A DNA stretch of 64,000 nt from Candidatus Woesearchaeota archaeon (GTDB taxonomy: Archaea; Nanobdellota; Nanobdellia; Woesearchaeales; SKIA01): assembly GCA_043771635.1 (NCBI GenBank), contig JAYVHA010000007.1, forward strand, positions 2,233-66,232. The letters are read 5' to 3'. The notes under the pieces were generated by a model. It made no database searches. It had not been told where the DNA came from and was given only the letters and a program-made list of their open reading frames with translations. Below, piece by piece: positions 1 to 63,095 of the stretch. Made by a program: the position numbers and the translations under genes. Numbering within the stretch: the first letter of the stretch is position 1; every line of letters begins with the position of its first letter.

Positions 1-3000
1 TGCTCTCACAGATCCAATAGATAATAAACAAACTGCCTCACAGCGTTCTGAACCCAGCTCACGATCCCTTTTAATAGGTGAACACCCTCACCCTTGGCCG
101 CTTGTGCACGGCCAGGATAGGAAGAGCCGACATCGATGTAGCAAGCCGCGCCGTCGATTTGAGCTCTCGGGCGCGACAACTCTGTTATCCCCGGAGTAAC
201 TTTTCGGTCATACCTAACTCCCATCAAGGAAGTATAGGGGTTCGCTAGGCCACGGTTTCCCGACTGGAATCTGTCTTGTTATGATTCCAGTTAAGCTGAC
301 TTTTACCCTTGCATTCTACGTCCGATTTCTGTCCGGACTGAGTCAACCATTGGGCACCATCGATACCGTTTCGATGGTGTGCCACCCCAGCCAAACTGTC
401 CACCTGCAGGTGTTCTCTTGTGGAGTAAGCGATGTAATAATCGAAGGGTAGTCTTACACCTTTCGCCTCCCCGTTACCTGGCGGCAACGGATCGACAGCT
501 CCTACCTATACCTCTACAACAATCATCACACCACAGCTACAGGCTACAGTAAAGTTTCACGGGGTCTTCACTTCCCATTGGATCTCTCTGGCTTTTGCAC
601 CAGAAAAGAGTTTTCGGAGGGTTCCAGATGGGGACAGTGGGAATCTCGTTGCGCCATTCATGCAGGCCGTCAATTAAACGGCAAGGCATTTCGCTCTGAT
701 TTGTTACTGTCTTCGTAAGAAGAACTGGCATACTAATTTCTTGCACGCTCAGAAGTAAAACTTCTGGCGTCCCGAAACTTTCGTTTCGTGGATGCTCTGC
801 ATATCGCTATGCAGGTCGGACTCTATCTTCACACTTGCGTGCGTTCAGCGTATTAGTCTCTGAGGATTCTGTACTTGCGTACAGTCTTTCCTGCTGATTG
901 GCTCCAGCACACGAATTGTCACTGCTCTTTCGAGCGAGTATCGGTGCATACTATGAATTTGTTACAATTCACGTACAAGAAATCTCTATTTCTGTGTACC
1001 GAGCTTTTCCAGCATATGGCTGAATTAACACTCACAGCCTCGCGGCCATGGTGCAGAAGTTCTTGCGAAATCCTTATATCTCGAATTACTTGGCGCGTCT
1101 GTTTGTTTAACAAGCAACTACTCGAGTCTTAAAGCAACGATTTACCTTAAGAGAGTTATAGTTACCCCCGCCGTTTACCAGCCCTTAGCTCGGTTGAACC
1201 CGAGTTTTAGGTACTGGCACTGGGCAGACGTCACCAGCTATACTCACCCTTACGGGCTTGCAGCTAGTTGTGTTTTTGTTAAACAGTCGGACCCCCCTAG
1301 TCACTGCGCCCTGCGCTCGCCTTGCGACGAGTACAGGGACCCCTTATGCCGAAGGCACGGGGCTATTTTGCCGAGTTCCCTCACCTGGATTGATCCCTTC
1401 ACACCTAAGGCTTCTCACCTAGGGGCACCTGTGCCGGTTCTGGGTACGGACAGAGTGGACTTGTATGCACTCCTTTTTCATGGGCACCAGGCATCAGCGT
1501 AATACAACTTGCGTCATACCATTCCTATGATTACTCCTCCGCTCATCGCTACGATACTTGGAGGACTTGCCATAGTTAGCGGCTCATCGCCGTACACCTA
1601 GCCCGATGCGTCAGTAGTTGCAATTTCGTTGCCGACTACCACTCCGGTTCCGGACTATTAACCGGATTCCCTTTCCGCGATACCTCGTTTTCCGAGGTTC
1701 GTTAGGACCGACTAACCCTCGGCTGATTTACATTGCCGAGGAACCCTTGCCCTTTCGGTGACGTGGATTCTCACCACGCTTTGATCCTACTATCACCAGG
1801 ATGCTCATTCCTGCGCGCTCCACCACAACTCACGAAGTGGCTTCTACGCACGCAGGACGCCTTACCTACCGCACACCCAATGGGTGGCCTAATGTATCGG
1901 TGAGCAGTTTAAGCCCCGTCCGTTTTAGGCGCCCGCGCTCTTGACGAGTAAGCTGTTACGCACTTTTTAAAGGATGGCTGCTTCTAAGCCAACCTCCTCG
2001 CTGTCTGTGAGCGCAGACAACCTTCACCCTTTAACACTGAACTGCTACTGTGGGACCTTAACATTAGTCTGGGTTGTTCCCCTCTCCCAGCGCAAGTTTA
2101 CCCCGCGCCGGCGTCTCCGGACGTCTACGATGTCCACGCATTCGGAGTTGGACAAGAGCCCGAACCCTTTCGAGTCCTGAAGCCCCAATCCGTCGCTCTA
2201 CCGCGCAGACTATCTCAGTCCAGGCTTGACTACGGCCAACTTTGGTAGGAACCAGCTATCACGGTTCTCGATTGGCTTTTTACCCCTACTCCCAGGTCAG
2301 AAGAACACTTGTACGTAGAACCTCTGCGGCCCTCCACGCAGTTTTACCCGCGCTTCAGCCTGCCCAGGGGTAGATCGAACCGCTTCGGGTCGTAAATCTG
2401 TGACTGCAGGCACTTTCATACCTCGCCCCTCATTGCTTGCGGGCTTGTCGCTTTCGCTACGCATACCTCTCTTCGAGTTATGCTTGCCACTGACATACAC
2501 TCCCTGGCTCGTTATTCAAAACGAACGATGCACGACCAATCTTTCGGCCGCGCATCACACTATCAGTAATTGGTTTCAGATTCTTTTCACTCCCTGTTAC
2601 GGGTTCTTTTCAGCTTTCCCTCGCGGTACTATTCGCTATCGGACTCTATTTGTGTTTAGCGTTAGAGGTTGATGCCCCCTATCTTCATGCCTCATATCCA
2701 AGAGGCACTACTCTTGTGCAACCATTACCCTTCCGCATACCCCTACGGGTCTGTCACCCTCTCAGGAGCCTCGTTCCAGAGGACTTCGGGTCTGCGGTGT
2801 CGGGTAGGCGATGCACCCACATCTCCTGCATATTTCTATGCACGATTCAGTTTGCGCTGTGCCGTGTTCAGTCGCCCTTACTAGCGGCATCTCAATTGAT
2901 TTCTCTTCCTGCGGTTACTAAGACGTTTCAATTCACCGCGTTCGCTATCCTTTCGGATTCCATGGCGAGGTCGCATTCGGATATCCCGGGTTCAATCCCC

Positions 3001-3100
3001 GCGTGCGGGTCGCCCGGGCTTTGTGCAGCTTGCCACATCCTTCTTCGCCAATAGAGCCAAGCCATCCACCAATTACTATCATTATCAGATCATTTAATTA
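1..3100 (-). rRNA. rrl: 23S rRNA, partial (3' end lies left of window); contains ~445-nt intervening sequence
   Basis: Reverse complement of 1-230 reads GGGGATAACAGAGTTGTCGC...CATCGATGTCGGCTCTTCC (23S domain V). rc of ~540-565 gives AAGACCCCGTGAAAC. rc of 3040-3095 gives GGTGGATGGCTTGGC..GGCGAAGAAGGATGTGGCAAGCTGC (23S 5' region). Boundaries approximate. Confidence 0.9.
696..1142 (-). other. intervening sequence/intron inside 23S rRNA (no ORF), inserted in the helix 69-71 region
   Basis: Exon sequence on the rRNA sense strand reads ..GTAACTATAACTCTCTTAAGGTA | ~445 nt | AGCGAAATGCCTTGCC..CCTGCATGAATGG. The universally contiguous GGTAGCGAAAT is interrupted. Junctions are approximate to a few nt. 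Confidence 0.6.
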
Positions 3101-3380: not shown

Positions 3381-3452
3381 TGGACTCGCCGGGATTTGAA
3401 CCCGGAGCCTCCCGCGTGCAAGGCGGGCGCTCTACCGTTGAGCTACGAGCCC
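3381..3452 (-). tRNA. tRNA-Ala (anticodon TGC) in 16S-23S spacer
   Basis: rc = GGGCTCGTAGCTCAACGGTAGAGCGCCCGCCTTGCACGCGGGAGGCTCCGGGTTCAAATCCCGGCGAGTCCA. Cloverleaf with 7-bp acceptor stem (one G-T), anticodon loop CTTGCAC, T-loop TTCAAAT. No encoded CCA. Confidence 0.85.
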
Positions 3453-3631: not shown

Positions 3632-5102
<1,471 letters not shown>

Positions 5103-9919: not shown

Positions 9920-12900
9920 ATGAGCAAAGTATCTGCGAGTAGCTTTTTCGCAATGTTTATACTGCTAATTTCAACCGCAGGTGTAAGCGCGCTTCCCGCG
10001 GGCTTTGAGCAAGTAAATGTTTTTACGGGCCTTGACAGCCCTGTGGCTGTGCGCTTCGCACCTGATGGTAGCGCGTTCGTTGCGGAGAAAGGGGGCAAGA
10101 TACAGTATTTTGCAAATCTAACAGCGACTAAAGTACTTACTGCTGACTTTAGTGCTGATGTGTATTCAAATGATGGCACCGATACAGGCTTGCTCGGTCT
10201 TGCTGTACACCCTCAGTACGGCGCCGGCAAAAATTATGTCTATGCACTATACACTCGCGAAAATTCTGTCTATCCTAGCGGACGACTTGTCAAACTGACA
10301 GTCAACCCACTCACAGGAATTATGCTTGACAGCGAAACAATTCTTGAAGGTTGGTGCCAAATGTCAAACACGCACTCCATTGGAGACTTACACTTCGGTC
10401 CCGACGGCGCACTTTATGTAAGCGGCGGGGAGGGCGCAAGTGCAGATAGCCTTGACTATGGACAAGTCGACTCGTCATCATACCCAGGTCAAACGTGCCA
10501 AGATCCGTTTGACGAAGCTGCAAACATACGCGAAGGCGGCTCGCTACGAAGCCAAGATATGATGACGGACACAGACCCGACAGGTCTCTCAGGTGCCATC
10601 CTTCGCATTGATCCGGAAACGGGACTTGCTATGCCAGGAAACCCTAACTACGGCAATGCTGATGAGAACAAAGCACGCATAATTGCATTCGGAGAACGTA
10701 ACCCCTACCGATTCACATTCCACCCACAAACAGGAGAAATTTGGACACAGAATACGGGCTGGTATAGCTGGGAAGAACTAAACCGCATTGAAGACCCAAC
10801 AGACGCCGTCATTGAAAACTTCGGCTGGCCGTGTTTCGAAGGCGACGTAGCTCAACCTGAATTTAAAACTAAGAACATAAGCATTTGTAATGCGCTTTAC
10901 GCAGATGATACTACGACTAAACCACATATTAAATTTACGTATGGCGATCGAAGATCCAGCTCAGGCCTTGCCTTCTACGAAGGAAGCACGTATCCTGCCG
11001 AATATAATGGAGCTCTGTTTGTAGCGGACGTAATTGGATACTTCACGCAAACTGATACTATCAGAGTAATTTATCCTGATGCTGATGGCTTGCCTGACGC
11101 GAGCCACATAGAATCCTTCGCAGGCCCATCCCTCGGACCTGTAGACTTGCAACTCGGTCCGGACGGTCTCATTTACGCAGCAGACATTTCTACATACACA
11201 ATTGTTCGAATTGAATATCATGCAGCAAACCCAGAAAGCTTTGGTACGCTCGCAATAACCAGTACTCCTCAAGGTGCAAGCATATCAATCGACGGAGCAC
11301 CACAAATTAACAGAACACCTACATCATTTGTGCTGCCGCAAGGAAATTATAGCATTACGTTAAGCATGACTGGTAGAAAAGATGCTACAGTTTCTACTAC
11401 TATAACCGCAAACAAGACAACGGACGTGCCTGTTTTGCTTGCAGTGGTAGATACTGGTATGCGATTTAATGCGGGCGGGCCAACCTATATTGACACGCAA
11501 GCTCGAACTTGGGCGCCCGACACAGCATACGTCATTGAACCAAGCGACTTTTTCACAAATCCCGCACCTATTTCTGATTCAGTTGAAGACGCACTATATC
11601 AAAGTGAGCGCTCGGCAATTCCAGGTAGCACTCAACTGGGTTACGAGTTTCCCGTACCAAATGGTAATTACATCGTCACACTACACTTCGCCGAAATTGA
11701 TTCTGCATTTCACCTTGAAGGGCTACGCGTATTCGATGCCTATGCTGAAGGAGAGGTAGTTAAGAACGACCTAGATATTTATGCGATTAGCGGCGCAGAC
11801 ACATCTAGTTCATACTTTACAACCGTGCCAGTTAGCGACGGAAACCTTTCAATTAACTTTGATGCCTCTGCAGGGTATCCTAAAGTTTCCGCAATTGAAA
11901 TTGTTCCGGTAGCAAATCAGTACACGTGCGCAGCAATCCATCAACATGACGATCCACTTACGGATTGCTGGCTCGTAGTTGACAGCTCTGTTTTTGACGT
12001 TACTGAAGCCTCGAAGTGGCATCCCGCAGCATACCACTGTGGAGAGAACATATCGGAAAATTATCATAGCAATCACGGACTTGTTATTAGGCCGCAGATG
12101 CTCAAGTTTCAAATCGGAATAACTGCCGATGTATGTCTGGCATACCAGCCAGAAGTAAACAATACTGATCCTAATCCAGTCACTGAACTATTTGTGCCTG
12201 AAGGCAGCTGGAACCCGCTTGAACTTATTAGTATTGTAGAGAGTACCAGCCACTCACTCCTGTTTGTTGACGGCACAACACACTCGCCAGTAGCGAGAAT
12301 TCATGATATTGGTGATAGACCCCACACTTCAGTATTCAGCCCTGAGGGCGATTTAATGTACATAATTTCGCGAGACGGATGGCTCTCAAAAATTGACTTG
12401 ACAACCTTAAAAGTAGCAGATTCAGCGCACGTTGGTGAGGACGCGCGCGGCACAGCAATAACTTCAGACGGCGCCATAGTGGCGGTCGGCAACTACGATC
12501 CACGCACAGTCGTACTGTTGAGCACACAAACTCTATCGACACTTGCAACATTCGAGCTAGTAGTAGAGCAGAATGGCACTAACGTAACATCACGCGCTGG
12601 TGCGCTGCTTGAGGATGGCGACAATATAATCGTTGCGCTTAAAGACGTAAATAGCGTATGGGTTATTGATGCTAAGACACTAACAGTTACACACAAGTAC
12701 TATAACATCGGCTCAAGCCAAACCCCACTTCACGATGGATTCGTCACGCCGAACGGTCAATACTTTATCGTAGCGGCGCAAGGCTCGAACACTGCATGGG
12801 TGCTAGACCTGGATACAATGACGCCTGTCGGTGAAGTACCCACAGGCCGTACGCCGCACACCGGCCGCGGCGCAGTATGGGGCGACTACGCGTTCGTTCC

Positions 12901-15250
12901 TGCGCTCGGCGAAGGCAATATTACCGCAATTGACATGCGCACTTGGGAGCCCGCAGCATACATTGCAACGGGTGGCCCTGGACTCTTTGTTCGAAGCTAT
13001 GATGCAAATCCACTGTATCCTTACGTGTGGGCTGACACCTCATTTGGGGAGCACCGCGACGAAATATATGTTATTGACGGTGCGAGCCTTAAGATTGTGA
13101 AAACACTCGTGCAAATTCAAGGCAATACTTCCATGCAACCAGAATTTACGAGAGATGGACGTTACGTGTACATTGCAGTGACTGACGGTGACGCAGTATA
13201 CGTATATGATTCGCTCACGTTTGAAATCGTAGCTACACTTGAGGCTACTACGCCGACCGCTATTTCCGCTATTGGAACCAGATTGCCTGTGCATTCACCA
13301 GTAACAGACAATAACATAATTGCGCGCATAAATGTCGGCGGCAATGCTTACAATGATTCGCATGGACAGCAATGGTCGGCAGACACTTATCCGCTTGATA
13401 CACATACCGTATCATCCAGCGCCAACATTAAGGGAACTGTTGATCACGCAATTTATCAGAACGCGCGGCGTACGGACGCGGACGCGCTCACGTACGCATT
13501 TGCAATTCCTGATGGGAAATACCAAGTTAGATTACATTTTGCAGAACTAGGTGCCTTTGAAGCAGGAATTAACGTATTTGACATTATAATCGAAAACGAA
13601 GTGGTGGAAAACAATTTTGACATCTTTGCAGCGGCAGGTATGGCGGCCGCCGTAGTTAAGGAGTACTCAACCACCGTTTCAGACGGAGTATTAACTGTCG
13701 CACTTAATCATAAAGAAGGCGAGCCGCTACTTGCCGGCATTGAAATTATTGCGCAAGATGCTGCGTGCTACGAACCGCAACCAGGCACTTATGTCGCGAA
13801 CGGCGATGATATAGTGGCCGCAACTAATTGGAACCTGACGCAAACTGTGACTGTTGAACTTGGCGAATTCTCCTTTAGTCCAAGTATACTGGCGCTCGAA
13901 GTAGGGCAGCCATACAAAATTATACTTAACAACACAGGACTAATCAAACATGAATTCGAGGCGGAAGAATTCTTCCGCACAGTTGCCTTGCACAAAGCGC
14001 AAGACACACATGCAGAAGTCAAGACAGCGTACTTTAGTGAAATTGAAGTATTTGCAGGAGAACAAGTTGAACTGTATGTAGTTCCATTAATCACAGGCAC
14101 CTATGCTATGGACTGCGCTATTACAGGCCACCACGAAGCAGGAATGTTCGGAAGCATAATCGTGACTGGTTCCGCGACTATTAGCCCGGCTCCGGTTATT
14201 GCACAGGTCTCAGATGGCGACTGGGTGCAGAATGCCGCTAACGTGATAGCAGGTGCGAATTGGACCAACATGCAAACTGTACGCATAGAACTTGATGAGT
14301 TCTCATTTAGTCCGAACAGCCTCGCGTTTGAAGTTGGAAAACCGTACAAGGTCGAGATAGTAAATATAGGAGTCACGCAGCACGAATTTGAAGCGGAAAG
14401 TTTCTTTAGAACTACCGCATTCAGAAAAGCTCAAGACGAAGCAGGCGAATTCAAATCACCATTCGTGCGCGAAGTTGAAGTATTCCCAAGTCAGCAATTG
14501 GATCTTTACTTCATACCCACTAAAGCCGGAACGTTTGGACTTGACTGCGCCATTGCAGGCCACCACGAAGCAGGAATGTTCGGCACAATTACTGTGAGCG
14601 GAAGCGACCTTGAGCAACTTACTTGTGCGCGTCCAACCGGCGCTATGCGTGTAATGTCTTCACCAGCTGGCGCAGCTGTGTTTGTCGACGGCATAAACAT
14701 AGGTGCTGCGCCGGCGACATACAACGCAATTCCGGGCGAGCACACAGTACAATGCGAACTCTCAGGATACACTAGCAGCACAGTCGCCGTGACTATTACC
14801 ATAGGAAGTACAACTGAAGTGGACTGCGACTTACAACGAATAATTAAGCGCAGTTCTGGTGGAGGCGGCGGTGGAGGAAGCAGTAAGCGCATAACAGCCA
14901 TCAATGTAACAAACAATACAGCAGCTGTGCCGCCAGTGAATACTGAAACGGCACCACCCGCACCGCCAGTTGATAAATTACCAACCTCTGACGCGACCTC
15001 AGGCGAAGGAGCTGCAGTTACAGCTAGTGACGCGCAAGCACAGAATGAATTGCAAGGGAGTACAGCACGCGCACCTAATAGCGAGCAAGAAAGTCCTTCA
15101 GCACTCACAGGCGCAGTAACTGGGGAACCTAGCGAATCCACGCAAGGGATTAAGTGGAGGTACGTGTACTATGCCCTGGGAGCAGCAGTAATACTTGGCG
15201 CCGCAGCGCTGGTATTCCGCGCAAGGCGATTGAAACGTAGGCAGGCTTAA
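9920..15250 (+). CDS. giant (1776 aa) C-terminally membrane-anchored multidomain surface protein: GSDH-like beta-propeller, PEGA, malectin-like x2, cyt b5-like, YVTN beta-propeller, cupredoxin x2
   Basis: Signal peptide MSKVSASSFFAMFILLISTAGVSA. LPAGFEQVNVFTGLDSPVAVRFAPDGSAFVAEKGGKI (glucose/sorbosone dehydrogenase family). ARINVGGNAY..YQVRLHFAE (malectin-like). Two CAI(T/A)GHHEAGMFG type-1 copper motifs. PEGA-like MRVMSSPAGAAVFVDGINIGAAP. Gly7 and PT-rich linker. Terminal TM plus RRLKRRQA. Confidence 0.85.
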   Translation: MSKVSASSFFAMFILLISTAGVSALPAGFEQVNVFTGLDSPVAVRFAPDGSAFVAEKGGKIQYFANLTATKVLTADFSADVYSNDGTDTGLLGLAVHPQYGAGKNYVYALYTRENSVYPSGRLVKLTVNPLTGIMLDSETILEGWCQMSNTHSIGDLHFGPDGALYVSGGEGASADSLDYGQVDSSSYPGQTCQDPFDEAANIREGGSLRSQDMMTDTDPTGLSGAILRIDPETGLAMPGNPNYGNADENKARIIAFGERNPYRFTFHPQTGEIWTQNTGWYSWEELNRIEDPTDAVIENFGWPCFEGDVAQPEFKTKNISICNALYADDTTTKPHIKFTYGDRRSSSGLAFYEGSTYPAEYNGALFVADVIGYFTQTDTIRVIYPDADGLPDASHIESFAGPSLGPVDLQLGPDGLIYAADISTYTIVRIEYHAANPESFGTLAITSTPQGASISIDGAPQINRTPTSFVLPQGNYSITLSMTGRKDATVSTTITANKTTDVPVLLAVVDTGMRFNAGGPTYIDTQARTWAPDTAYVIEPSDFFTNPAPISDSVEDALYQSERSAIPGSTQLGYEFPVPNGNYIVTLHFAEIDSAFHLEGLRVFDAYAEGEVVKNDLDIYAISGADTSSSYFTTVPVSDGNLSINFDASAGYPKVSAIEIVPVANQYTCAAIHQHDDPLTDCWLVVDSSVFDVTEASKWHPAAYHCGENISENYHSNHGLVIRPQMLKFQIGITADVCLAYQPEVNNTDPNPVTELFVPEGSWNPLELISIVESTSHSLLFVDGTTHSPVARIHDIGDRPHTSVFSPEGDLMYIISRDGWLSKIDLTTLKVADSAHVGEDARGTAITSDGAIVAVGNYDPRTVVLLSTQTLSTLATFELVVEQNGTNVTSRAGALLEDGDNIIVALKDVNSVWVIDAKTLTVTHKYYNIGSSQTPLHDGFVTPNGQYFIVAAQGSNTAWVLDLDTMTPVGEVPTGRTPHTGRGAVWGDYAFVPALGEGNITAIDMRTWEPAAYIATGGPGLFVRSYDANPLYPYVWADTSFGEHRDEIYVIDGASLKIVKTLVQIQGNTSMQPEFTRDGRYVYIAVTDGDAVYVYDSLTFEIVATLEATTPTAISAIGTRLPVHSPVTDNNIIARINVGGNAYNDSHGQQWSADTYPLDTHTVSSSANIKGTVDHAIYQNARRTDADALTYAFAIPDGKYQVRLHFAELGAFEAGINVFDIIIENEVVENNFDIFAAAGMAAAVVKEYSTTVSDGVLTVALNHKEGEPLLAGIEIIAQDAACYEPQPGTYVANGDDIVAATNWNLTQTVTVELGEFSFSPSILALEVGQPYKIILNNTGLIKHEFEAEEFFRTVALHKAQDTHAEVKTAYFSEIEVFAGEQVELYVVPLITGTYAMDCAITGHHEAGMFGSIIVTGSATISPAPVIAQVSDGDWVQNAANVIAGANWTNMQTVRIELDEFSFSPNSLAFEVGKPYKVEIVNIGVTQHEFEAESFFRTTAFRKAQDEAGEFKSPFVREVEVFPSQQLDLYFIPTKAGTFGLDCAIAGHHEAGMFGTITVSGSDLEQLTCARPTGAMRVMSSPAGAAVFVDGINIGAAPATYNAIPGEHTVQCELSGYTSSTVAVTITIGSTTEVDCDLQRIIKRSSGGGGGGGSSKRITAINVTNNTAAVPPVNTETAPPAPPVDKLPTSDATSGEGAAVTASDAQAQNELQGSTARAPNSEQESPSALTGAVTGEPSESTQGIKWRYVYYALGAAVILGAAALVFRARRLKRRQA

Positions 15251-39851: not shown

Positions 39852-41603
39852 ATGAAACTAGTAGGGTTAAAACTAGCCTACATTAAGTCTTTTAAAACTC
39901 TGGATTGGAATATAGCCCGAACTAAGGTAATAATTGGTCAAAATGATCATGGCAAGTCCTCAATTCTTAAGATACTAAATTTTGTTCTGAACGAGATTAC
40001 CGACTATCATCTGGATCAAGGATTTTTGGAGCCTGCACTAGCAGAAAAACTAATTCCTGCATTTAGTACGAGCGCTCGCGCCAGGCGCATAACATTAATT
40101 GTGCAAGAAAAAAGCAAATATAAAGAACTGTATATTGATATTGGACGCAATTACTCCATAAAAGTTCATGATAAAATAACGCGGGGCGCTAAAACTACTC
40201 CTGCAGGCAAGAAGCTATTCACAAAGATACGTAGTAAAAATAGGTTTGAACTGGTACCAGCGATAAGAGACGTATCGTCAGAGATATATAAGCAGCTTTT
40301 TTCTACAACGCTACAGCAACACGGACTTTCAAAACTAAAACCCAAAGCCGCGGGTGGAACACAGAGAGAATACAGAGAACTACTAGCTATTAGAAATAGC
40401 ATCGATGAAATTATCCAGCCGTATGTACATAAACGATTGCTGCCCAAGTTAAGTGACGAATTTGGTTTCACGCCACAGCACGAACTTCTTCTAACATTCA
40501 ATAAGGATACAGAGGCAATTGCCGAATGGATTCAAAGCAACCTACAACTTGGTTTCAAATTAGGCAAGGAAGCAGAAGAATATATTTCAATTGATGAAGC
40601 GGGAACAGGAATACAAAGTGCCTTGCTCCTTGCGCTCATAAGATTAAAAAATAGAAGTGAAGCTGACAAGAATGTTCATTTTTTTCTTGCCATCGAAGAA
40701 CCGGAGACATTTCTACATCCACAAAAACAAAAAGAGCTTTACTCTAGCATCAAGGGATTGGAGTCTGATAACCTAACCATAATTATCACGACGCACAGCC
40801 CATACATTGTTTCTGAATCTAAATTTTCTAGCTTAGGGATAGTTCGCAAAGACGACAAGTTCTCAAACCTCCACACTGTGAAGAGCGTGCCACCAAAAGA
40901 TATGGACATATTTGACAGCTATAGTGGTGAAGTAAATTCACAATTGTTTTTTGCGGATAAAGTCATACTCGTAGAAGGAGAAAGCGATAAAAGAGTTATA
41001 GAAACAATTTTACACCGCAAATTTGGAGCCAAGTCATTTAGGTATACAGTAATTTCGGCGGCAGGCAACAGAAATTTTTCGCCATATCTAAAAATGATCA
41101 ACTGTTGGAAAGAATTGAAGATTCCTCATCTAGTTGTTACTGATTTTGATTCATTAACGGCGGGTAGCGATAGAGCCATGAATACTGGCGCAAAGGCCGC
41201 AGGATATTTGCTAAATGCTGAGCAACTGTTAAATCAAAACGTAGACGACGCGATTCAAAAAGATGAAGGCGAGTATAGAAAAATAGCCATTCAAGCAGCC
41301 AATTTCTATGCTCGTTCAGGATTAGAAGTATTCATTTGGACTTGTGACTTGGAGTATGCACTAATTTCGGATAGCAAAATAGACCCAATAGTTCGGGAAT
41401 TAAGTGCAGCGAACAATTCAAGCTATTCAGGCTACACTTGCGCTCAACTGCGTACATTAATCGGAAGCAAAGGCATCCCTCTAAACAGCGGATCAGATGC
41501 ATTAAAGAAACCGTACATACATCAAAAATTGTCGTGGCATTTAGACCTGGATGACACTGAAAGTGATGTATATCGTCTGATTCAAGCAATAAATAAGTTA
41601 TGA
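39852..41603 (+). CDS. OLD-family nuclease: N-terminal ABC-type ATPase + C-terminal Toprim
   Basis: Walker A GQNDHGKSSILK. Walker B/H-loop FLAIEEPETFLHP. Toprim ILVEGESDKRVIE and HLVVTDFDSL. Confidence 0.75.
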   Translation: MKLVGLKLAYIKSFKTLDWNIARTKVIIGQNDHGKSSILKILNFVLNEITDYHLDQGFLEPALAEKLIPAFSTSARARRITLIVQEKSKYKELYIDIGRNYSIKVHDKITRGAKTTPAGKKLFTKIRSKNRFELVPAIRDVSSEIYKQLFSTTLQQHGLSKLKPKAAGGTQREYRELLAIRNSIDEIIQPYVHKRLLPKLSDEFGFTPQHELLLTFNKDTEAIAEWIQSNLQLGFKLGKEAEEYISIDEAGTGIQSALLLALIRLKNRSEADKNVHFFLAIEEPETFLHPQKQKELYSSIKGLESDNLTIIITTHSPYIVSESKFSSLGIVRKDDKFSNLHTVKSVPPKDMDIFDSYSGEVNSQLFFADKVILVEGESDKRVIETILHRKFGAKSFRYTVISAAGNRNFSPYLKMINCWKELKIPHLVVTDFDSLTAGSDRAMNTGAKAAGYLLNAEQLLNQNVDDAIQKDEGEYRKIAIQAANFYARSGLEVFIWTCDLEYALISDSKIDPIVRELSAANNSSYSGYTCAQLRTLIGSKGIPLNSGSDALKKPYIHQKLSWHLDLDDTESDVYRLIQAINKL

Positions 41604-42045: not shown

Positions 42046-45000
42046 TTGGGTGGGCAGATAATCTGCCAAAGAGTGATAGAAGCAACAAGAAAAAACGTAC
42101 TACTCTTTATTGCATTAGTTGCACTTTTTTCTTGCGTATTTTCAGTGCGGGCTGCGGAATATAGTACTGCTACAGCTTTTCCGACAATTCCAGGCTTAGG
42201 ATTGAATACAGGTGTTGTTGCGGCTGCAGATCAGAACACTGGTGCTTTCGCATATAGTTACCAGTTTACAGTCCCTGAAGGTCCTGGCGGTTTAAAACCT
42301 GAGGTAGTACTGTCATATAATTCTCAGGCTGCTCGTGAACAGCGAGGAAACCAAGCAGCTGGCTGGGTTCTTAATAACGAGTATATTGACCGATTCCAAA
42401 ACTATACTCCATACATACTAACGGATGACGAATTCTACTTAGTATCTGGAAACGGGCGTGAGAAACTCATGTACAATGGATCTGGGACTAATAGATGGCA
42501 TACTCAGCACGAGACATTTACTTACATACAGAACTTAACATCAACTTCCAACAACTTTGGGATGTACTGGTCGATAAAGTATCCTGATGGTACAACAAAA
42601 CGTTATGGAGAATCTAGTAGTGAAGAATATGAAACCACTTACGGTGTAATGGCGAAACGCTATCATCTCGACCAGACAAATGACACATATGGCAATAAAC
42701 TACAGTTCCACTATCAACCAGCTGGAGTATTCACCTTAGACTACATAACTTATGGCGGTTCTACCCCAAGAACAGTTCAATTCGTGTATGAACCAAGACA
42801 ATATCCTAGGACCACTTACTATAATGGCTTTGAAGAACAATACACAGCTAGGCTTGCTGGAGTACAAACTACATACGGCGGAACACAAGTAAGATACTAC
42901 GATTTGAACTACTCAGTATCTGATTATTTGGAGCTATTACAATCAATAACTGAGTTATCAGCAACGAATAGCACATCATTACCAGCTACCACATTTAGCT
43001 ACTACTCAGCAACCGGGTGGATCAATCTAACCAGTCCATGGAGTCTTAACCCGCTATACTTCTTTGAATTCGAAGATGGTAAGGATTCAGGCGCCAGGGT
43101 AATTGACATAACTGGAGATGGCTTAGCTGACTACATACGACAAGTAATGTGCAATTCAAGCGCCTATAATAATACGCCTAACGTAAGTACAGCATATATG
43201 CGACAATTCCCTGGCGCAAGCAAAATAACTGTAACGGCGCAAGCATATGGAAATAGTTCTAACATGCAAAACTATGCCGTATCAGCAGGATTTCCACTAA
43301 CTGCAGCTCACAACCTTACGCAATCAGGCATTCTCAGCATCACTAATCAAGAGTATGGTCTTTACATAACTCCGAATAGAAACATATCGCTTCACCGCGT
43401 CAATGGTGATGGAATAGGTGCACCTTTCGAAATTGAGGTATTCAATGTATCATCAAGGATAGAAATCGCATCAGCTATAGGATCGAATGGCTATGCACAA
43501 TTTGACTCAGGCGTAAATTTATTCGCGCACCAGCGATATAGAGTGAGCTTTAAAGGAGCATCGCAAACGTATAGATATGGATCAGGTACAGGAGAGACTG
43601 TCAATTCAACATATCTTGCTATTGAGTGCGGCTACAGATATAATGATCCAAATGAAGGGTACTGCTATTCAATAGCATCATTCTCTATAGAGGAGCTATT
43701 TGAAAACAGCACCACTACAGGTTCCACTACCCTGAATCTAAACAACGGCGTGTACAATGGCAGGATACTTGCGGAAAACCACACGACAAAAACCTTTACG
43801 CTCACAGTTAACGGAACAGGTACGCAGCATGTATCAGATGTAGTTACCTCAAACGACTACTGTGCACCTGTACTGATAAACAACGGAAGCGGATACAACC
43901 TAGACGATGGCACTTGGAGAGTACCTACAAACTACTCGTTCGTGGACAATGGCACTGATTTAGGCACAAGATTTGCAGACATAAATGGAGATGGCCGCGT
44001 TGATCTCGTGCGAAGCGACTGCACCGCCGGAAAAACATTCAACGGAGTGATGCTAAACAATGGAGCTGGCTGGACTGCAACAAACTGGACTGTTCCAGCG
44101 GGTTACTGCATCATAGATGCCGGTTACAACGCAGGAACAGAACTTCTTGACGTAAACGCAGACGGAAGAGCAGATCTAGTAAACGGACGCGATCAAGCGC
44201 CGCTTATACTAAAAACAGCACTAAACACAGGATCTGGCTGGTCTAACTCAACTCAATTTACTCCACCAGTAGCCACAATGACCTACCTTGGAGGAGACGA
44301 CAGTGTGCGATACGTTGATATGAATGGAGATAATCTCGTGGATGTTCTTCAGCAATGCGGAGCTACAGCTTGCAGATCCTCTTACTTGAATAATGGTTCT
44401 GGCTGGAAATCAACGCAGGTATGGTGGACGCCTACCACGTACGCGTTTACTAACGGAATAACTGACGAGGGACTGCGACTAGTGGATCTTAACGGAGACG
44501 GGCTAACCGACATATTGAGGAGAAAGAATTGCACCTCCATTAACTGCTATGGAGTGCTGTTCAACAATGGAAGTGGCTGGATACAAGATACTTCAACATT
44601 ATGGATACCAAACAATACAATGGCGTTTACCATCGGTGAAAAAAACAAAATAATTCGACTAACAGACATAGATGGAGACGGAGCAGTAGATCTTGTTAAA
44701 CGAGATTTGTGTACAACCGCGGACTGTAATACTACACTGCGAAGCTTAGGAGCTAATAACAACCTGCTGCAATCAATAAAGTACAGCACCGGCGGAAACG
44801 TGACCGTTACGTACAACTACTCTGCTCGCAAAAAGAACCTCGGAACAGACAATATCGCAGACATGCCCTACTCTCTACCCGTGGTCGAAACGATAACGCA
44901 GGCAAATGGTATTAGCGGGGCGTCCCAAAGACAAGAAACGACAGGTTACAACTATTCGGGTGCCGTTTACGCAAGAAACGCTTGGACAAGTGAGTTCCGA

Positions 45001-47106
45001 GGATTCGCCACCACAAACCAAACTATAGGTAGAAAAAGAATCTCGACAAACTGGTTCCAATCAACAGGTCTCGAAGGCCGAATTAAGTATCGCGAAACAC
45101 ACGACGGCAGCACAAGGCTCAGAAACGAATCAAGCGACACATTTGTGCACAACTCATCCTATATTTACAAAGCGGTAACGCTGGGCGTTACAACAGCCCA
45201 ATACGATGGAAACTCAACACCTTGGACGACAATAACGAACTTTACGTACGACCAGTACGGAAACGCCCTCACGGAATACTCGCAAGGCGACACAGCAATA
45301 ACTGGTGATGAGCGTCTAAAGAATAAAACTTACACTGCGAACACCGCATTATGGATCATTAATACAGTCAATAAAGAGCAGCTACTGGCTGCAAATAACG
45401 TAACAATTCTGCGGCAAACTAACTACAGCCGAAACACACAAGGATCAGTCAGCGGAGAAGAAAAATTCCTATCTGGAGGAACGAACACGTACAAGAACTA
45501 CACGTACGATGCGTACGGCAACATAAACAGAACAGCAGACGAAAGAGGATACGTAACAGCACAAACGTACGACTCATCCGGAACATTCCCCCTGACAACG
45601 CTTAATGCCCTCGGACAGTACACATACAGAACCTGGAACTCATCGCTTGGCACCTTAATTAGCGAAAACGACAGTAACAACTACTCGACAAACCACATGT
45701 ACGACGCATTCGCAAGAAAACTAACAACAACAAAACCGTACGACACAACAGCATCACCAACAGTATCGCACAGCTATTCATTTGACGGAGTAAGCCCCGA
45801 ATCAATTACAACTACGACAAAGATAAACGCAACAACAAACGCAGTAACAATCCAGTACCTGGACGGCCTAGGAAAAGTAGTACAAACCAAACAACTAGCA
45901 GAAGATGCACTGTACGCAGTACAAGACTTCACGTACGACACTCAAGCACGACTAAACCAAACAACAAACCCATACTACTCAAACAACAGCAGCTACGCAC
46001 ACCCCATACTAACCAACGGTTACTCGGGAATAACATACGACGCACAAGACAGACCAACACAACTAAGGTACGCAGATAGTAGGACAAAAAACACAACCTA
46101 CGCCAAGAACGTCACAACCAGTTATGATGAAAACGCGGAAAGAACAGACACGGTAAAAGATGCATACGCAAATACTATACGGATACTAGAGTACTTGAAC
46201 GGAACTGCATACGCGACTTCGTACACGTATGACGCAGTAAGCCAGCTACTAACAATTGAAGATGCACAAGGCAACGACATAACGTTCAGCTACGACACGT
46301 TTGGCCGAAAGACCTCACTTGTCGATCCTGACCTCGGAACTTGGAACTACACCTACGATGCTGCAGGTAACTTAGTTTCTCAACGTGACGGCCGCGGCGT
46401 GACAGTATCCCTCTCGTACGACGCACTGAACAGGGTAACTCGCAAAAACGGAACATCAAGCGCAATGGACTTCACATACGATACCATCGCAAAAGGAACA
46501 TTGGCAAAAGTGGCTCTGACAAGCGCGAACAAGACATTCGCGTACGACCAACGTTTACGACGCACGCAAGAGAACTTGAGCATAGACGGAATAACATTCA
46601 GCACGAATTATAGCTACGACAGTGCAGACCACCTCATCCAGAAGAATATGACGAATGGGACTAGCATTAGATATACGTATAACGCTTTTAACAAACCTGA
46701 GAGTATTACAGGGATAATTAATGACTTTGATTATGTTGCTGTAGGCCAGCCAAGCGGCCGCGCGTATAACAATACACTCACAACAAACCTGACTTACGAC
46801 ACGAATAGCTTGCGTCTTAGCCGCATATATACGGGCACGAAGCAAAACATGAGTTATAGTTACGATGCTGTTGGAAACATATTGTTAATTACAGATGTCG
46901 CAAATAACGCGTCAGAAACATACACGTACGACGACTTAAACAGAATTAGCACGGCGAACAGAATAGTAAACGGAACAACACAATTTAGTGCAGCATACAC
47001 AGTAAGCCCAATTAACGTAATTACGAAGATAGTCACAAATAGTTGGACTAAGACTTTCAGCTTCGGATCTGCGCCAGTGCATGCTCCAAGCGAGGCAGCA
47101 GAGTGA
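42046..47106 (+). CDS. TcB-like RHS/YD-repeat protein: SpvB-N domain, FG-GAP-like beta-propeller, long YD-repeat shell (no RHS core)
   Basis: Signal-like NVLLFIALVALFSCVFSVRA. SpvB-like PGLGLNTG..YSYQFTVPEGPGGLKPEVVLSYNS..AGWVL. Repeats DINGDGRVDLV, VDLNGDGLTDIL, TDIDGDGAVDLV with NNGSGW. Dozens of YD repeats (YTYDAAGNLVSQRDGRG, YDALNRVTRK). Start codon uncertain (TTG/GTG). Confidence 0.85.
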   Translation: MGGQIICQRVIEATRKNVLLFIALVALFSCVFSVRAAEYSTATAFPTIPGLGLNTGVVAAADQNTGAFAYSYQFTVPEGPGGLKPEVVLSYNSQAAREQRGNQAAGWVLNNEYIDRFQNYTPYILTDDEFYLVSGNGREKLMYNGSGTNRWHTQHETFTYIQNLTSTSNNFGMYWSIKYPDGTTKRYGESSSEEYETTYGVMAKRYHLDQTNDTYGNKLQFHYQPAGVFTLDYITYGGSTPRTVQFVYEPRQYPRTTYYNGFEEQYTARLAGVQTTYGGTQVRYYDLNYSVSDYLELLQSITELSATNSTSLPATTFSYYSATGWINLTSPWSLNPLYFFEFEDGKDSGARVIDITGDGLADYIRQVMCNSSAYNNTPNVSTAYMRQFPGASKITVTAQAYGNSSNMQNYAVSAGFPLTAAHNLTQSGILSITNQEYGLYITPNRNISLHRVNGDGIGAPFEIEVFNVSSRIEIASAIGSNGYAQFDSGVNLFAHQRYRVSFKGASQTYRYGSGTGETVNSTYLAIECGYRYNDPNEGYCYSIASFSIEELFENSTTTGSTTLNLNNGVYNGRILAENHTTKTFTLTVNGTGTQHVSDVVTSNDYCAPVLINNGSGYNLDDGTWRVPTNYSFVDNGTDLGTRFADINGDGRVDLVRSDCTAGKTFNGVMLNNGAGWTATNWTVPAGYCIIDAGYNAGTELLDVNADGRADLVNGRDQAPLILKTALNTGSGWSNSTQFTPPVATMTYLGGDDSVRYVDMNGDNLVDVLQQCGATACRSSYLNNGSGWKSTQVWWTPTTYAFTNGITDEGLRLVDLNGDGLTDILRRKNCTSINCYGVLFNNGSGWIQDTSTLWIPNNTMAFTIGEKNKIIRLTDIDGDGAVDLVKRDLCTTADCNTTLRSLGANNNLLQSIKYSTGGNVTVTYNYSARKKNLGTDNIADMPYSLPVVETITQANGISGASQRQETTGYNYSGAVYARNAWTSEFRGFATTNQTIGRKRISTNWFQSTGLEGRIKYRETHDGSTRLRNESSDTFVHNSSYIYKAVTLGVTTAQYDGNSTPWTTITNFTYDQYGNALTEYSQGDTAITGDERLKNKTYTANTALWIINTVNKEQLLAANNVTILRQTNYSRNTQGSVSGEEKFLSGGTNTYKNYTYDAYGNINRTADERGYVTAQTYDSSGTFPLTTLNALGQYTYRTWNSSLGTLISENDSNNYSTNHMYDAFARKLTTTKPYDTTASPTVSHSYSFDGVSPESITTTTKINATTNAVTIQYLDGLGKVVQTKQLAEDALYAVQDFTYDTQARLNQTTNPYYSNNSSYAHPILTNGYSGITYDAQDRPTQLRYADSRTKNTTYAKNVTTSYDENAERTDTVKDAYANTIRILEYLNGTAYATSYTYDAVSQLLTIEDAQGNDITFSYDTFGRKTSLVDPDLGTWNYTYDAAGNLVSQRDGRGVTVSLSYDALNRVTRKNGTSSAMDFTYDTIAKGTLAKVALTSANKTFAYDQRLRRTQENLSIDGITFSTNYSYDSADHLIQKNMTNGTSIRYTYNAFNKPESITGIINDFDYVAVGQPSGRAYNNTLTTNLTYDTNSLRLSRIYTGTKQNMSYSYDAVGNILLITDVANNASETYTYDDLNRISTANRIVNGTTQFSAAYTVSPINVITKIVTNSWTKTFSFGSAPVHAPSEAAE

Positions 47107-50100
47107 ATCGAATGTTCCTTGCTGTCATGTTCGTTGCATTAGCATTAGCAATTCCTTCGGCATTAGCTGATAACATCACTAATGAAACGAACAACTCAAT
47201 TCCAATACTATTACCGAACGGCACGATCAACACAACAGCCCCAGTAATTATACTCGTGCCAACAGAGAATGTAGTAGAACAGCCTGCTGTAACAATATCA
47301 GAACCAAACCCTAAGCCTGCCGATGAGCCACAAGTAATTGAGGCTCTAGAACTTGTTGTAGCTCCTACTGAACCTCGTGACGCGCCCACACGCGACCCAG
47401 CAACAGTAGACGCACCCATACCTTATTGCGGACATAAGTCATGCGCAAAGGAGATTCTGACTACTGTGCGTGTTTCTGAAACAGCGTTTGGACGGCAGGA
47501 GATACTACAGCTAGAAAAAGATCCAAATTACCCGTGTACCATCGAAGAAGGCGGATTTGTAGTATGCGAGCCAATAACTCCTCAAGGAGAAGCAGCATTA
47601 AGGGCTGCATACGACCTCTCCGAAGGAATTCCCACTACAGACTACCGCCAGCCAGTTTACGAAGGATATTCAAGCCAACTGAGTACAGGCATCGTACGCG
47701 GAGTGAGAATTGGTTCTTACAAACGATCCACGATCAACCCTACCGTCCGGCAAAGATTCGAAATTAACGCTTCCGAACCTGGCGTATTCGTCGTAGGATT
47801 CGCCTCAAACGTCTTTGTCGTGTCAGACTTTAATTACGGTACGTGCGAGAACTGCTCAATTGGCACAACACAAGTAACACTTGAAAACTACCACTCGACA
47901 GACGCAGCACAAGCGCTTTCATGGCGTTTCTCAGGAAACGGACTAGACAGCTCAGGAAACGCAAACACAGCAACATTCGGCGGAGCAGCATACGTAAACA
48001 ACACATTTGCTGATGGTTTCGCGTTTAATGATGCCAATAAACTATCAGCTCCAGATGCCGCTAGCCTTGATATTTCAAACATGACGTTGTCTTTCTGGGT
48101 TCGGTTTAAATCCCTAACAGAAAACCAAACACTGATTTACCGCTACACATCAACAAACGGGTACTTATGCGAATTCGCTAAATACGACACAACAGGAATT
48201 CAATGCTACACAAGAAACTCAACAGCAGGAGGTGCTGCATGGGTACAGACAGGAGGAGCTAGCGAGACACAAAACCCTGACTATGAAATAAACAAATGGT
48301 ACCACATAGTACTAACCTATAACCTAAGCTCAGGAAACCTAAGCATATACCAAGACGGAACACTAAAGCACTCAAAAATTGCAACAAACCACAGCATGTC
48401 GTCAACAGCTTCATTCAAATGGGGAGCGGACTACTTCGACGCGTTCAACGGAACTGTAGACGAAATAAACCTCTACAGCAGAACATTCTCAGCAACAGAA
48501 GTAACATCCCTGTACAACTCGGGCTTATACCTAGTAAACCCATCATACGGAAACTACACAAGCATGATTGACCTCGGCCAATCATCGACTGTTTCAAGTG
48601 TGTCTTGGACTGGAAGTGGAAACCTAACAATAGCAGCAAGAACCGGAGACTATGCAAAACCAGGATTAACAGATACTGGACTATTCGGGTACTGGCCACT
48701 AAACCAATCACTGCTTTGTAAGGATGCGAACAGCCGTTATAACGGAACAGCATCATCAGGAGTAATCTGTGGAAACGTATCAGGACCATTCGTGCTAGAA
48801 AACGCAACATGGTTTGACAGCGACACCGACAAAATAACTCTACCACTCGCGACAAACTTCACCAACTGGTCTGTGCAAGTATGGGTGCGAAGCGATGGCA
48901 CATGTGTCGACGGACAAAACATATTCGCAAAAGGATGGGACTACCGAATATACACAACAAGCTCTTGCGGCATAACCATAGTATCAGCGAACAGCAGTGG
49001 CTCAAACAAATCAATGTCGTCCGTATGCTCAATATCCGACGGCCGATGGCACTCACTAGCATACGTATACAACGACACAGCAAAGACCGCGTACGCGTAC
49101 TGCGACGGAGTACAAAAGTCTAGCGTGACTCAGCAAGGCACAGCAACCTCATCAACTAACTTCACAATCGGCGGAGGAACTTCCGGCTTGACCTTCAGAG
49201 GATCCGTAGCGCAAGTATCATTATGGAATAAGACACTAGCACCAGCAGACCTAGTAGCATGGAACACGTGGAGCAGCACGCTCACATCAGGAAACGACCC
49301 AGGACTAACAGACGGCAGGTATGTACAATATTCAGCAATACTGCGCACGAACGATACTCGCAATACTTCGATGCTGACTAGCGTAAGCGTAGGCACAAGC
49401 AGTTCTTGCTCACTTTCAAACGGAGGTTACAACGTAACCCTAATGAACGGCGCATCAACAGGAAGCGGATACGCAACACTAGATGGAACTGATGATAGAA
49501 TAGATACTGACCTAAATGTTAGTTCTGTACTTAATAACGGAAGCTTCACACTTGCCATGTGGGTGAAAAGTGATGTCGACAGTGGGCAGCGAGCATTCTG
49601 GAGCGCGGACAGTAGCGGAACAGATAGATTCTATTTACGACAGAGCGATATAAGCTCAAACCAAGTAGTGCTCGGCGCCAGTAGCTGGAATCCGGTGTTG
49701 ACAGGTTATGGTGCTTTGAGTAACTGGACACATTACGTCCTGATTATTAACGGAACTAGTGGCCTATTCTACCGTAACGGGTTGAACGTTGCTAACACAA
49801 CAGGAATAACAAAGAACTATCCAGGAAAATACTTACGATTCGGCGCTAACGGCGATACACTAGCAGAAACACACGACGGAAACATAGACGGGATAAACCT
49901 ATACAACCGAGCACTAACATTAACAGAAGTTAGCCAGCTGTACACAAACATAACTGTAACAACCGGTCAAATACTTAGCATAGAATTCAATACCTGCAGC
50001 GCAACAACGAGTTTAACATACGACCCTAACGGAAACATGGTTTACGACGGTACGTATACCTACGAGTATGATTCATTCAATAGGTTGACCAAAATCTGGC

Positions 50101-51218: not shown

Positions 51219-51541
51219 CAAAGGAAAAAACACTGACTAAGAATTTGAACGCAGACATCCTTGTTAATTTGTCCAATGTGGCAAGTAAAAAAAAAGTGTT
51301 CGAGATATTTAGTTCAGAACTATTTTTTCCAGAGTATTTCGGACACAACTGGGATGCGCTATATGACTGCTTAACAGACCTTGTTTGGCTTCCAAAAGTT
51401 AAAACAACTATTACAGTCTGTCTTCCAAAAAGGCTTTCTAACAATGATAAACTCGTTTTAGTAAGATTGCTTCAGGATGTAGACGCCTACTGGGAGCAGG
51501 AAAAGAGACATATTAGGGTCAAAATTGGTAATAACAATTAG
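51215..51541 (+). CDS. barstar-family immunity protein
   Basis: ELFFPEYFGHNWDALYDCLTDLVWLP versus barstar [26 protein letters not shown]. ATGA overlap with the toxin stop. Confidence 0.8.
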   Translation: MTKEKTLTKNLNADILVNLSNVASKKKVFEIFSSELFFPEYFGHNWDALYDCLTDLVWLPKVKTTITVCLPKRLSNNDKLVLVRLLQDVDAYWEQEKRHIRVKIGNNN

Positions 51542-55477: not shown

Positions 55478-56269
55478 TCATCTAAATTGAGAGTTAGTAC
55501 GTAGCTGCTTACTCCGCCTTCTAATAGTTACTTCGACGACTCCAGTGTAGCGTGTAAACAGTCTCTGTGCGCGGTATTCGCCTGTTGTTTGCATCGCGAC
55601 GTACAGGCTTGTTGCTGCGAGCGTACTTGGCTTAAGGCCGTTACTGGCATTCATTCCTGCGTATTGTATTGCTAGAGTTACTGTGTTGCTTGGCAGCCGT
55701 AGTCTTGTTGCGAACCGCGGTATGAGGTCTATTGCTTCTATCGTGCCCGTTCTTATTTTTAGAGCTCTTTGAATGTGTTTTGCAGCCTTAAGCAATTCAG
55801 CTTTAGGTATTTCTGTGTGCGCAGTAATTTCTAGCGCTGTTTGCGGCGTTCCGGCGTCGATGCATGCAATGTATACTGCTGCGTATGCAAATGCCTGATT
55901 GCTTCTGCCGATTGTTATTTCTTTATTGGTTACTTCGAGGAACATTCTTTTTGCTTCTGCCGCTACGGTTTTAGGTGCTTTAATTCTTGATACTAGAAGG
56001 TCTATTTCGCTGCATGTTGCTCGGAAGTTTTTTTGTTTGGTTGTTAATAGCCATGATTCTGTTAGGTGTCTTCCGTTTGTGTTGAAGGTGCCTGCTTGCG
56101 CTAAGGCTGGATGTGATGCGTGGCTGCCTTCGGATAACAAGGTACTTTGTTCTATTCTGTTGTCTTCAAGCACTAACCCGCAGCCTAGGCACACTAGCTC
56201 TCCTTGGGATTCTCTAAATCTCTTTTCCGCGCATTCAGAGCACCGCATTAGAATCTTCGCCTCCTTCAT
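55478..56269 (-). CDS. tfb: transcription initiation factor TFB (TFIIB) homologue, short form
   Basis: N-terminal Zn ribbon CSECAEKRF..GELVCLGCGLVLED. Cyclin-fold region NQAFAYAAVYIACIDAGTPQTALEIT. Confidence 0.7.
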   Translation of the reverse strand: MKEAKILMRCSECAEKRFRESQGELVCLGCGLVLEDNRIEQSTLLSEGSHASHPALAQAGTFNTNGRHLTESWLLTTKQKNFRATCSEIDLLVSRIKAPKTVAAEAKRMFLEVTNKEITIGRSNQAFAYAAVYIACIDAGTPQTALEITAHTEIPKAELLKAAKHIQRALKIRTGTIEAIDLIPRFATRLRLPSNTVTLAIQYAGMNASNGLKPSTLAATSLYVAMQTTGEYRAQRLFTRYTGVVEVTIRRRSKQLRTNSQFR

Positions 56270-56507
56270 CGGTAAAGTATAGTAGTACTGGCATTGTCTT
56301 CTGTTCGGAGAGTTTTTCGAGCCTGCTTAGCACTTGTTCTTTGCTTAGGCATAGCTCCATAACGTATTCTACTTTTGAGCTGCTTGAGCTGAATAGCTGT
56401 CGCACGGGTAATTTTAGATCTATTCTTCTTCGGCTATCGTTGTAGAGTACTTTCCCTGTTATGGTTACGATTTTGTTTGTTGTGCCGAATAGTATTTTTT
56501 CTCCCAT
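56235..56507 (-). CDS. hypothetical protein (90 aa)
   Basis: ORF lying between the ATPase and TFB genes in the same orientation. Confidence 0.3.
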   Translation of the reverse strand: MGEKILFGTTNKIVTITGKVLYNDSRRRIDLKLPVRQLFSSSSSKVEYVMELCLSKEQVLSRLEKLSEQKTMPVLLYFTDEGGEDSNAVL

Positions 56508-56617
56508 CCCGTATACATATACTGTATTTCATAATTTATCTACTTTCGCGTGATAATTTCAATGTATTTCCGGCGTTTCCGGATTACCGACGGCGCCACC
56601 CCTAAATCCAGGCCTAA

Positions 56618-62882: not shown

Positions 62883-63095
62883 TGACGGAAGAACCTAAAC
62901 CAAATAGAAAGCCTCCCTTCTACGACCCTGAGATAATGGGGACAAGAGACGAAACGCTTCAATACAAGTCGAACGATCCTCGTAAGGGCAAAGATTCAAA
63001 ATAATTTTTAACTTCTTTTACACTTTCAAAGCAGAAAGATATGAGCGCAACCTAGAATGTGAAGCATCAGACATTCGTTCAACGTTGGGCGCCCA

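Follow-up and report, generated by a model that had tools for sequence, protein, structure and literature searches.

An ORF-less insert at L1931 of the 23S rRNA gene of a probable DPANN archaeon is most likely a group I intron

Analysis of a 64,000-nt stretch of DNA (the window hereafter) revealed that the 23S rRNA gene at its left end is interrupted by 448 extra nucleotides. Very probably, this insert represents a group I intron without an ORF, located at L1931 in a DPANN-type archaeon, and it most likely removes itself by the group I reaction. The evidence comes from the position of the insert, from its match to the group I family, from the pairings at both splice sites and from covariation among homologous introns at the same site.

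The archaeal rRNA operon occupies the left end of the window on the minus strand (Table 1). When the gene was aligned with the Rfam archaeal LSU model, posterior probabilities were about 1 through this region, and just one stretch, some 450 nt long, stayed unaligned as an insertion, with ...CUCUCUUA on one side and AGCGAAAU on the other; the extra bases were found to interrupt the gene between ...CUCUCUUAAGGU and AGCGAAAU.... An earlier reading made from the letters of this DNA (the sequence-only reading) had reported extra sequence in the 23S rRNA and had proposed such a covariance-model alignment, which, once run, confirmed the report with its one insertion. The same reading was also right that the insertion falls within the conserved GGUAGCGAAAU sequence 3' of helix 69. 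One A at the junction is ambiguous and can be assigned to either side. The choice was made by the rules for group I introns (a U as the last base of the 5' exon, a G as the last base of the intron). Combined with the LSU model insertion, these rules gave an intron of 448 nt that starts at window position 1143 and stops at 696 (minus strand), so that intron nucleotide i is window position 1144-i. U1144, which ends the 5' exon, is the equivalent of E. coli U1931, and A695, which opens the 3' exon, that of E. coli A1932. Numbering by alignment of the spliced exons to an annotated E. coli 23S gene, with the count beginning at the gene start, put the insertion site between positions 1931 and 1932, which is L1931. 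The spliced junction would read ...CUUAAGGU joined to AGCGAAAUGCC, and the uninterrupted 23S stretch without the intron is ...TAAGGTAGCGAAATGCC....

The coordinates first proposed for the insert, 696-1142, hold at the 696 end, but the upstream boundary was one base short of the 1143 given by the group I rules, and the ambiguous A had been written on both sides of the junction. Similarly, the description of the site as an I-PpoI-type hot spot fits the neighbourhood but not the exact site. We take L1925, six bases upstream of L1931, to be the site of the Physarum polycephalum intron PpLSU3, which presumably belongs to a different subgroup and encodes the His-Cys box endonuclease I-PpoI. The two introns share the same 23S neighbourhood, while the window intron lies at L1931 and has no ORF. 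The exon sequence CTCTCTTAAGGTAGC presumably matches the I-PpoI recognition sequence, and we take the insertion site to be part of the conserved stretch just 3' of helix 69, at the subunit interface.

Table 1. Positions in the window of the rRNA operon genes, the intron and its elements (intron numbering runs from the 5' splice site)
Feature	Window position	Strand	Basis or remark
16S rRNA gene	3635-5102	-	rRNA operon at left window end
tRNA-Ala gene	3381-3452	-	rRNA operon at left window end
23S rRNA gene	1-3093	-	3' end cut by window edge; Rfam archaeal LSU model, 2252 bits
5' exon strand of P1 (UCUUAAGGU)	1144..1152	-	complementary to intron nt 9-17; U.G at splice site
Whole group I intron, 448 nt	696..1143	-	LSU model insertion, RF00028, splice-site rules, L1931 mapping
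P10 guide (UCGUU, intron nt 4-8)	1136..1140	-	pairs with 3' exon AGCGA, window 691-695; sequence read directly
Internal guide sequence, P1 3' strand (GCUUUAAGA, intron nt 9-17)	1127..1135	-	9 bp with exon
P2 hairpin domain with conserved GUUAAACA motif, intron nt 18-64	1080..1126	-	closing helix CUCGA/UCGAG
Window-specific P2.1-like hairpin, 45 nt, GCGA tetraloop, intron nt 73-117	1027..1071	-	predicted fold
P3 5' strand (UUCAGC), intron nt 120-125/295-300	1019..1024	-	pairs with window 844-849 (GCUGAA)
P4 5' strand (UGCUGG), intron nt 130-135/247-252	1009..1014	-	pairs with window 892-897 (UCAGCA)
P5 and enlarged P5 extension, intron nt 140-243	901..1004	-	three predicted hairpins, one with GAAA tetraloop
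P6/P6a hairpin, GCAA tetraloop, intron nt 253-280	864..891	-	covariation
P7 5' strand GAGACUA, intron nt 284-290 with 321-326	854..860	-	pairs with window 818-823 (GAGUCC)
P8 hairpin, GCAA tetraloop, intron nt 301-314	830..843	-	covariation
J8/7 and P7 3' strand (AAGAUAGAGUCC, conserved S element)	818..829	-	RF00028 alignment; alignment A1
P9 hairpin, GCGA tetraloop, intron nt 330-347	797..814	-	covariation
3' peripheral extension, P9.1/P9.2-like hairpins, one GAAA tetraloop	704..796	-	predicted folds; then conserved GUAACA motif
Terminal guanosine (omega-G), last intron nucleotide	696..696	-	sequence; L1931 mapping; intron ends ...AUCAG

An Rfam scan of the whole 64-kb window matched RF00028 on the minus strand at positions 797-1121, with 55.3 bits (gathering score 50) and E = 2.6e-11; the match covers the full length of the model (positions 1-253 of 253). 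Furthermore, the insert folds far better than its shuffled versions (MFE z-score -5.6). These two results show that the insert is not a chance feature. Six hairpins with GNRA tetraloops are found in the predicted fold.

The elements expected at the two splice sites can be read beside this match. The nucleotide at the 5' splice site is U1144, and this terminal exon U forms the wobble pair with G9 of the intron. At exon position -7 the archaeal-type base is U, in contrast to C in bacteria, and its partner in the guide is A15 of the intron. The guide thus fits the archaeal exon and not the bacterial one, and therefore the intron belongs in this gene. The P10 guide, of 5 bp, lies immediately 5' of the P1 guide, and this TCG(Y)T-GC arrangement is common to many bacterial and archaeal L1931 introns. 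Additionally, the P1 pairing is kept in 17 archaeal relatives, all of them selected by a pattern that requires P1.

Relatives at the same site were collected by two scans. The genome scan, in which one genome per species was searched for a G followed by the 3' exon at L1931, gave at least 120 loci; the loci listed are nearly all from bacterial MAGs, with two archaeal ones. All of the loci were chosen for a G directly before the 3' exon, so that conservation of the omega-G is built into this set. Among the matches listed, 97 inserts were extracted, and all four core anchors (P4, P4'/P6, J6/7-P7 and P7') are common to 85 of these 97 other L1931 inserts. The identity of the core to bacterial introns is 72-78% and reaches up to 86% when metagenome relatives are included (blastn). 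Many relatives carry an ORF-sized block of about 440-460 nt in P8 or P6. In the window intron both P6 and P8 are minimal, with no insert of that size, and it therefore does not resemble an ORF-bearing intron that has decayed. The metagenome scan, based on archaeal-type exons and the same guide sequence, found 23 archaeal L1931 loci, which have in common the TCGTT-GCYTTAAG guide, a P2 with GUUAAACA and the GUAACA-N-G ending. Among these 23 metagenome loci none is nearly identical to the window intron (the best match was 86% over 77 nt), so that the peripheral domains are predictions only.

Homologues at L1931 support the fold of the core by covariation. In alignment A1, made up of the core of the window intron and 14 short bacterial relatives and anchored on conserved motifs, which favours the adjacent helices, 96.0% of pair cells are standard in a paired structure that was specified by the analyst, the P3/P7 pseudoknot included. 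Changes on both sides occur in 27 of its 41 pairs, distributed over eight helices including the P7 pseudoknot. As controls, none of 500 shuffles reached the observed values, and when the 3' partners were slid by 1-3 columns only 34-41% of cells were paired. P3 and P4 are paired in 100% of cells; compensatory changes were found in five of the six P3 pairs, and P4 corresponds to the conserved P and Q elements of the RF00028 alignment. P5 is 98% paired over the three pairs counted, and its distal part is predicted only. Covariation was detected at all six pairs of P6a, at six of the seven pairs of P9 (99% of cells paired) and at all five pairs of P8, for which the paired fraction of 82% is lowered by MAFFT misalignment of this hairpin of variable length.

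The P7 helix is 95.6% paired in A1 and has two covarying pairs, while its G-C pairs are invariant in all 15 sequences. Its second base is the bulged A (window 859), which is followed by the pair of the guanosine-binding site, G858-C819. The innermost P7 pair of the window intron is an A.G mismatch, and a standard pair is also missing at this place in 3 of the 14 bacterial relatives in A1. There is also one extra base in J7/3.

Outside the core, three of the four P2 closing pairs covary among 17 archaeal L1931 introns. None of the 16 archaeal relatives aligned in A2 has the P2.1-like insertion, and the P5 domain measures 117 nt (with a 94-nt extension), compared with 47-98 nt in about four-fifths of the relatives. 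The structured 3' extension runs to about intron nt 440, and after it comes GUAACAAAUCAG, whose last base is the terminal G; an ending of the form GUAACA-N(3-5)-G is common to bacterial and archaeal relatives. The peripheral additions (P2.1-like hairpin, distal P5 and P9 extension) are predicted folds. A long-range pairing of nt 75-90 in the window-specific insertion with nt 417-432 in the 3' extension, taken from a constrained fold, was rejected, as its best duplex was not clearly better than those of shuffled sequences (p about 0.08).

The longest ORF in the insert encodes 64 aa in the sense direction (with a TTG start) and 85 aa in the antisense direction. No ORF is therefore longer than 85 aa, and the LAGLIDADG, GIY-YIG, HNH or His-Cys box ORF by which a mobile intron is recognized was not found. 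For the seven ORFs in or overlapping the insert, the Pfam scan gave no match even at E<=10, and on this result a remnant of a homing endonuclease was rejected as well. The ORF list and the Pfam scan agree with the sequence-only reading, which had noted that no LAGLIDADG-like or other homing-endonuclease ORF is present. Lacking a gene for a homing endonuclease, the intron has presumably lost the ability to move by itself and is inherited vertically.

From these elements we infer that the intron is catalytic and is spliced in the organism, by guanosine-initiated self-splicing guided by P1 and P10. In the first step, P1 would form between the guide (intron nt 9-17) and the final nine bases of the exon, its U.G pair would mark the 5' splice site, and a free guanosine would bind the G-C pair beside the bulged A in P7 and attack after U1931. 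In the second step, the terminal G of the intron would replace that guanosine in the binding site, P10 (intron nt 4-8 with AGCGA) would position the 3' exon, and the freed 5' exon would attack after the terminal G, which would join U1931 to A1932. Every sequence and structure element that this mechanism requires is present and conserved.

The rival that remains, which we regard as unlikely, is that the insert descends from group I introns and yet is not spliced. The insert would then be kept in the mature 23S rRNA or, in a variant, be cut out without ligation, which would leave a fragmented 23S rRNA. The A.G mismatch in P7 and the extra base in J7/3 are in its favour. However, the core elements and both exon-guide pairings are all preserved, which suggests selection for splicing and would be hard to explain without it, and the site lies in what we understand to be a conserved stretch 3' of helix 69, at the subunit interface. 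Precedents at L1931 itself point both ways, as far as the titles of the two reports go: that of Everett et al. (1999; PMC93955), 'An unspliced group I intron in 23S rRNA', concerns the Simkania intron at exactly this site, so that a complete core is no guarantee of splicing in vivo, whereas that of Nesbo and Doolittle (2003) states that the Thermotoga L1931 introns self-splice. A Simkania-like state, with the intron kept unspliced in the mature 23S rRNA, or its milder variant, in which the lineage-specific additions (P2.1, P5 and P9) lend the excised RNA a separate function, is in our view very unlikely; if the unspliced state were true, the ribosomes of this DPANN archaeon would carry a folded 448-nt ribozyme-like domain just after helix 69.

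The sequence-only reading had left the choice between a BHB-type and a group I intron. The group I part of this proposal is supported by RF00028, by P1 and P10 and by the core, while the BHB part did not survive. In a BHB intron the tRNA-splicing endonuclease would cut and an RNA ligase would join the exons, possibly acting on a decayed, protein-dependent group I intron. BHB introns are the usual introns of archaeal rRNA and tRNA genes, they coexist with group I introns in some archaeal rRNA genes, and some DPANN endonucleases accept relaxed motifs, according to one report (PMC5829648). Like the window intron, the BHB introns of crenarchaeal 16S and 23S genes, some of which contain LAGLIDADG genes, lie in archaeal rRNA genes; however, they are spliced by proteins at a bulge-helix-bulge and have no ribozyme core, and such a motif cannot form in the window intron. 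When the junction was checked for this fold, 32 registers that fit the mature product were tried, with both possible junction registers covered; none gave the 4-bp central helix with flanking 3-nt bulges, and the best register had three of the four central pairs and hardly any flanking helix. In contrast, the group I core is complete, and it is intact and conserved together with P1, P10 and the terminal G; a BHB intron is accordingly highly improbable. We give even less credence to an assembly artefact or contamination, by which an archaeal contig would have acquired a bacterial intron or rRNA fragment. Such an artefact would suit the metagenomic origin of the assembly and the 72-78% identity of the core to bacterial introns. 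However, the exons on either side are archaeal and run on into a complete operon of archaeal type (16S, tRNA-Ala and 23S), the guide sequence matches the archaeal-type exon, and the identical intron is found in the same operon context in a separately listed ENA assembly (L147). In the ENA record the 23S is complete (3347 nt), and this is its only group I match. The P2 architecture is also shared with archaeal relatives, whereas published bacterial L1931 introns are described without P2; in short bacterial L1931 introns the place of P2 is empty and P1 runs almost straight into P3.

ORF-less group I introns at LSU/1931 in DPANN archaea are a class known since 2018. Nawrocki, Jones and Eddy (2018, NAR; PMC6125680) reported 39 archaeal group I introns, 16 of which are at LSU/1931. 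Nine of these 16 are ORF-less (248-464 nt), and five of the nine are in Woesearchaeota and Pacearchaeota (311-464 nt; PMC6125680). At LSU/1931 they belong to subgroup IB4, with IB4.2-IB4.5 in Woesearchaeota and IB4.6 in Pacearchaeota (PMC6125680). The window intron resembles these archaeal IB4 introns in its site, its DPANN host, the lack of an ORF and its length (448 nt against 311-464 nt). It also has the same P7 layout, GAGACUN/NAGUCC with a bulged second base, and the arrangement of its P7 is the one tabulated for all 39 published archaeal introns (PMC6125680 supplement). By analogy, from this site and P7 layout shared with the published IB4 L1931 introns, it may be placed in subgroup IB4. 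Compared by the tabulated layout, it differs from the 39 published archaeal introns in the A.G at its innermost P7 pair, and compared with its archaeal relatives it has the 45-nt P2.1-like insertion, a larger P5 domain and a longer P9 extension. With the bacterial and organellar L1931 introns (Thermotoga, Synechococcus, Simkania, chloroplasts and mitochondria) it shares the site, a homologous core and the adjoining P10 and P1 on one guide, but it has no ORF, has P2 and the P2.1-like hairpin, and has a guide for the archaeal exon. The bacterial L1931 introns were described by Haugen et al. (2007; PMC1995217) as IC1-like, without P2 and with a gene for a single-motif LAGLIDADG endonuclease.

The host is probably a Woesearchaeota-like DPANN archaeon, as judged from the proteins that the window encodes. 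These include TFB and an archaeal-type SAM synthetase, and the best named hits of its ProRS are from Woesearchaeota, Nanoarchaeota and Pacearchaeota, at no more than 62% identity. In annotation, U1931/A1932 should be entered as the junction of two 23S exons, and primers or probes across this site will fail. The intron adds one more ORF-less LSU/1931 group I intron in DPANN archaea, which matters little alone. In a limited literature search, no report was found of an experimental demonstration of self-splicing by an archaeal group I intron. Well preserved, ORF-less and furnished with extra peripheral domains, the intron could be a test case for archaeal group I self-splicing.

One genome per species was scanned for an insertion ending in G at L1931 (between E. 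coli 23S rRNA positions 1931 and 1932; loci L003-L122). Among the matches listed, at least 118 bacterial species-level MAGs carry such an insertion, from Acidobacteriota, Actinomycetota, Eremiobacterota, Nitrospirota, Proteobacteria and CPR, among other groups, and 85 of the 97 inserts that could be extracted, again among the matches listed, share the group I core of the window intron.

The lineage-specific 5' insertion of the window intron (1027-1071, minus strand) is predicted by constrained folding to form 12 bp with its 3' extension (712-727, minus strand), a pairing that resembles a P13-type clamp. The complementarity between the two segments showed no clear excess over chance (p about 0.08), and no close relative of the intron was found with which to compare it.

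Several further proteins are encoded elsewhere in the window (table below). Taken together, the three giant ORFs, which lie in a row, resemble secreted polymorphic-toxin proteins, here in a DPANN archaeon. The genes at 55478-63809 may represent an integrated mobile element, conjugative or of another kind. OLD-family proteins of the type found here are frequent in anti-phage defence systems, and the 1776-aa multidomain protein is presumably a surface protein.

Further proteins encoded in the window
Feature	Position	Strand	Length	Domains or match
Multidomain protein	9920-15250	+	1776 aa	GSDH and cytochrome-D1-type propellers, two malectin, cupredoxin-like, PEGA
OLD-family protein	39852-41603	+		AAA_15/AAA_21 ATPase, TOPRIM nuclease
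First giant ORF	within 42046-54269	+	1686 aa	FG-GAP/RHS-repeat protein
Second giant ORF	within 42046-54269	+	1371 aa	Laminin_G_3; C-terminal barnase/T1-type 'Ribonuclease' (PF00545, aa 1251-1344)
Third giant ORF	within 42046-54269	+	914 aa	Laminin_G_3 protein
VirB4/TraC/TraG-type ATPase	within 55478-63809	-	999 aa	PrgI-like N-terminus
Protein adjoining the ATPase	within 55478-63809	-	673 aa	no Pfam match
TFIIB-family protein and N6/N4 DNA methylase, beside the ATPase	within 55478-63809	-		

A MAG labelled Methanosarcinales (L060) carries a group I intron of 766 nt at L1931, whose P6 holds an ORF-sized insert, and the same intron recurs in a JGI metagenome contig (L133). The intron in these two loci shows that the L1931 group I family is present outside DPANN. 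Because so many MAG loci were obtained, against just a handful of bacterial rRNA introns in Haugen et al. 2007 (PMC1995217), L1931 introns look much more frequent in uncultured bacteria than older reviews state.
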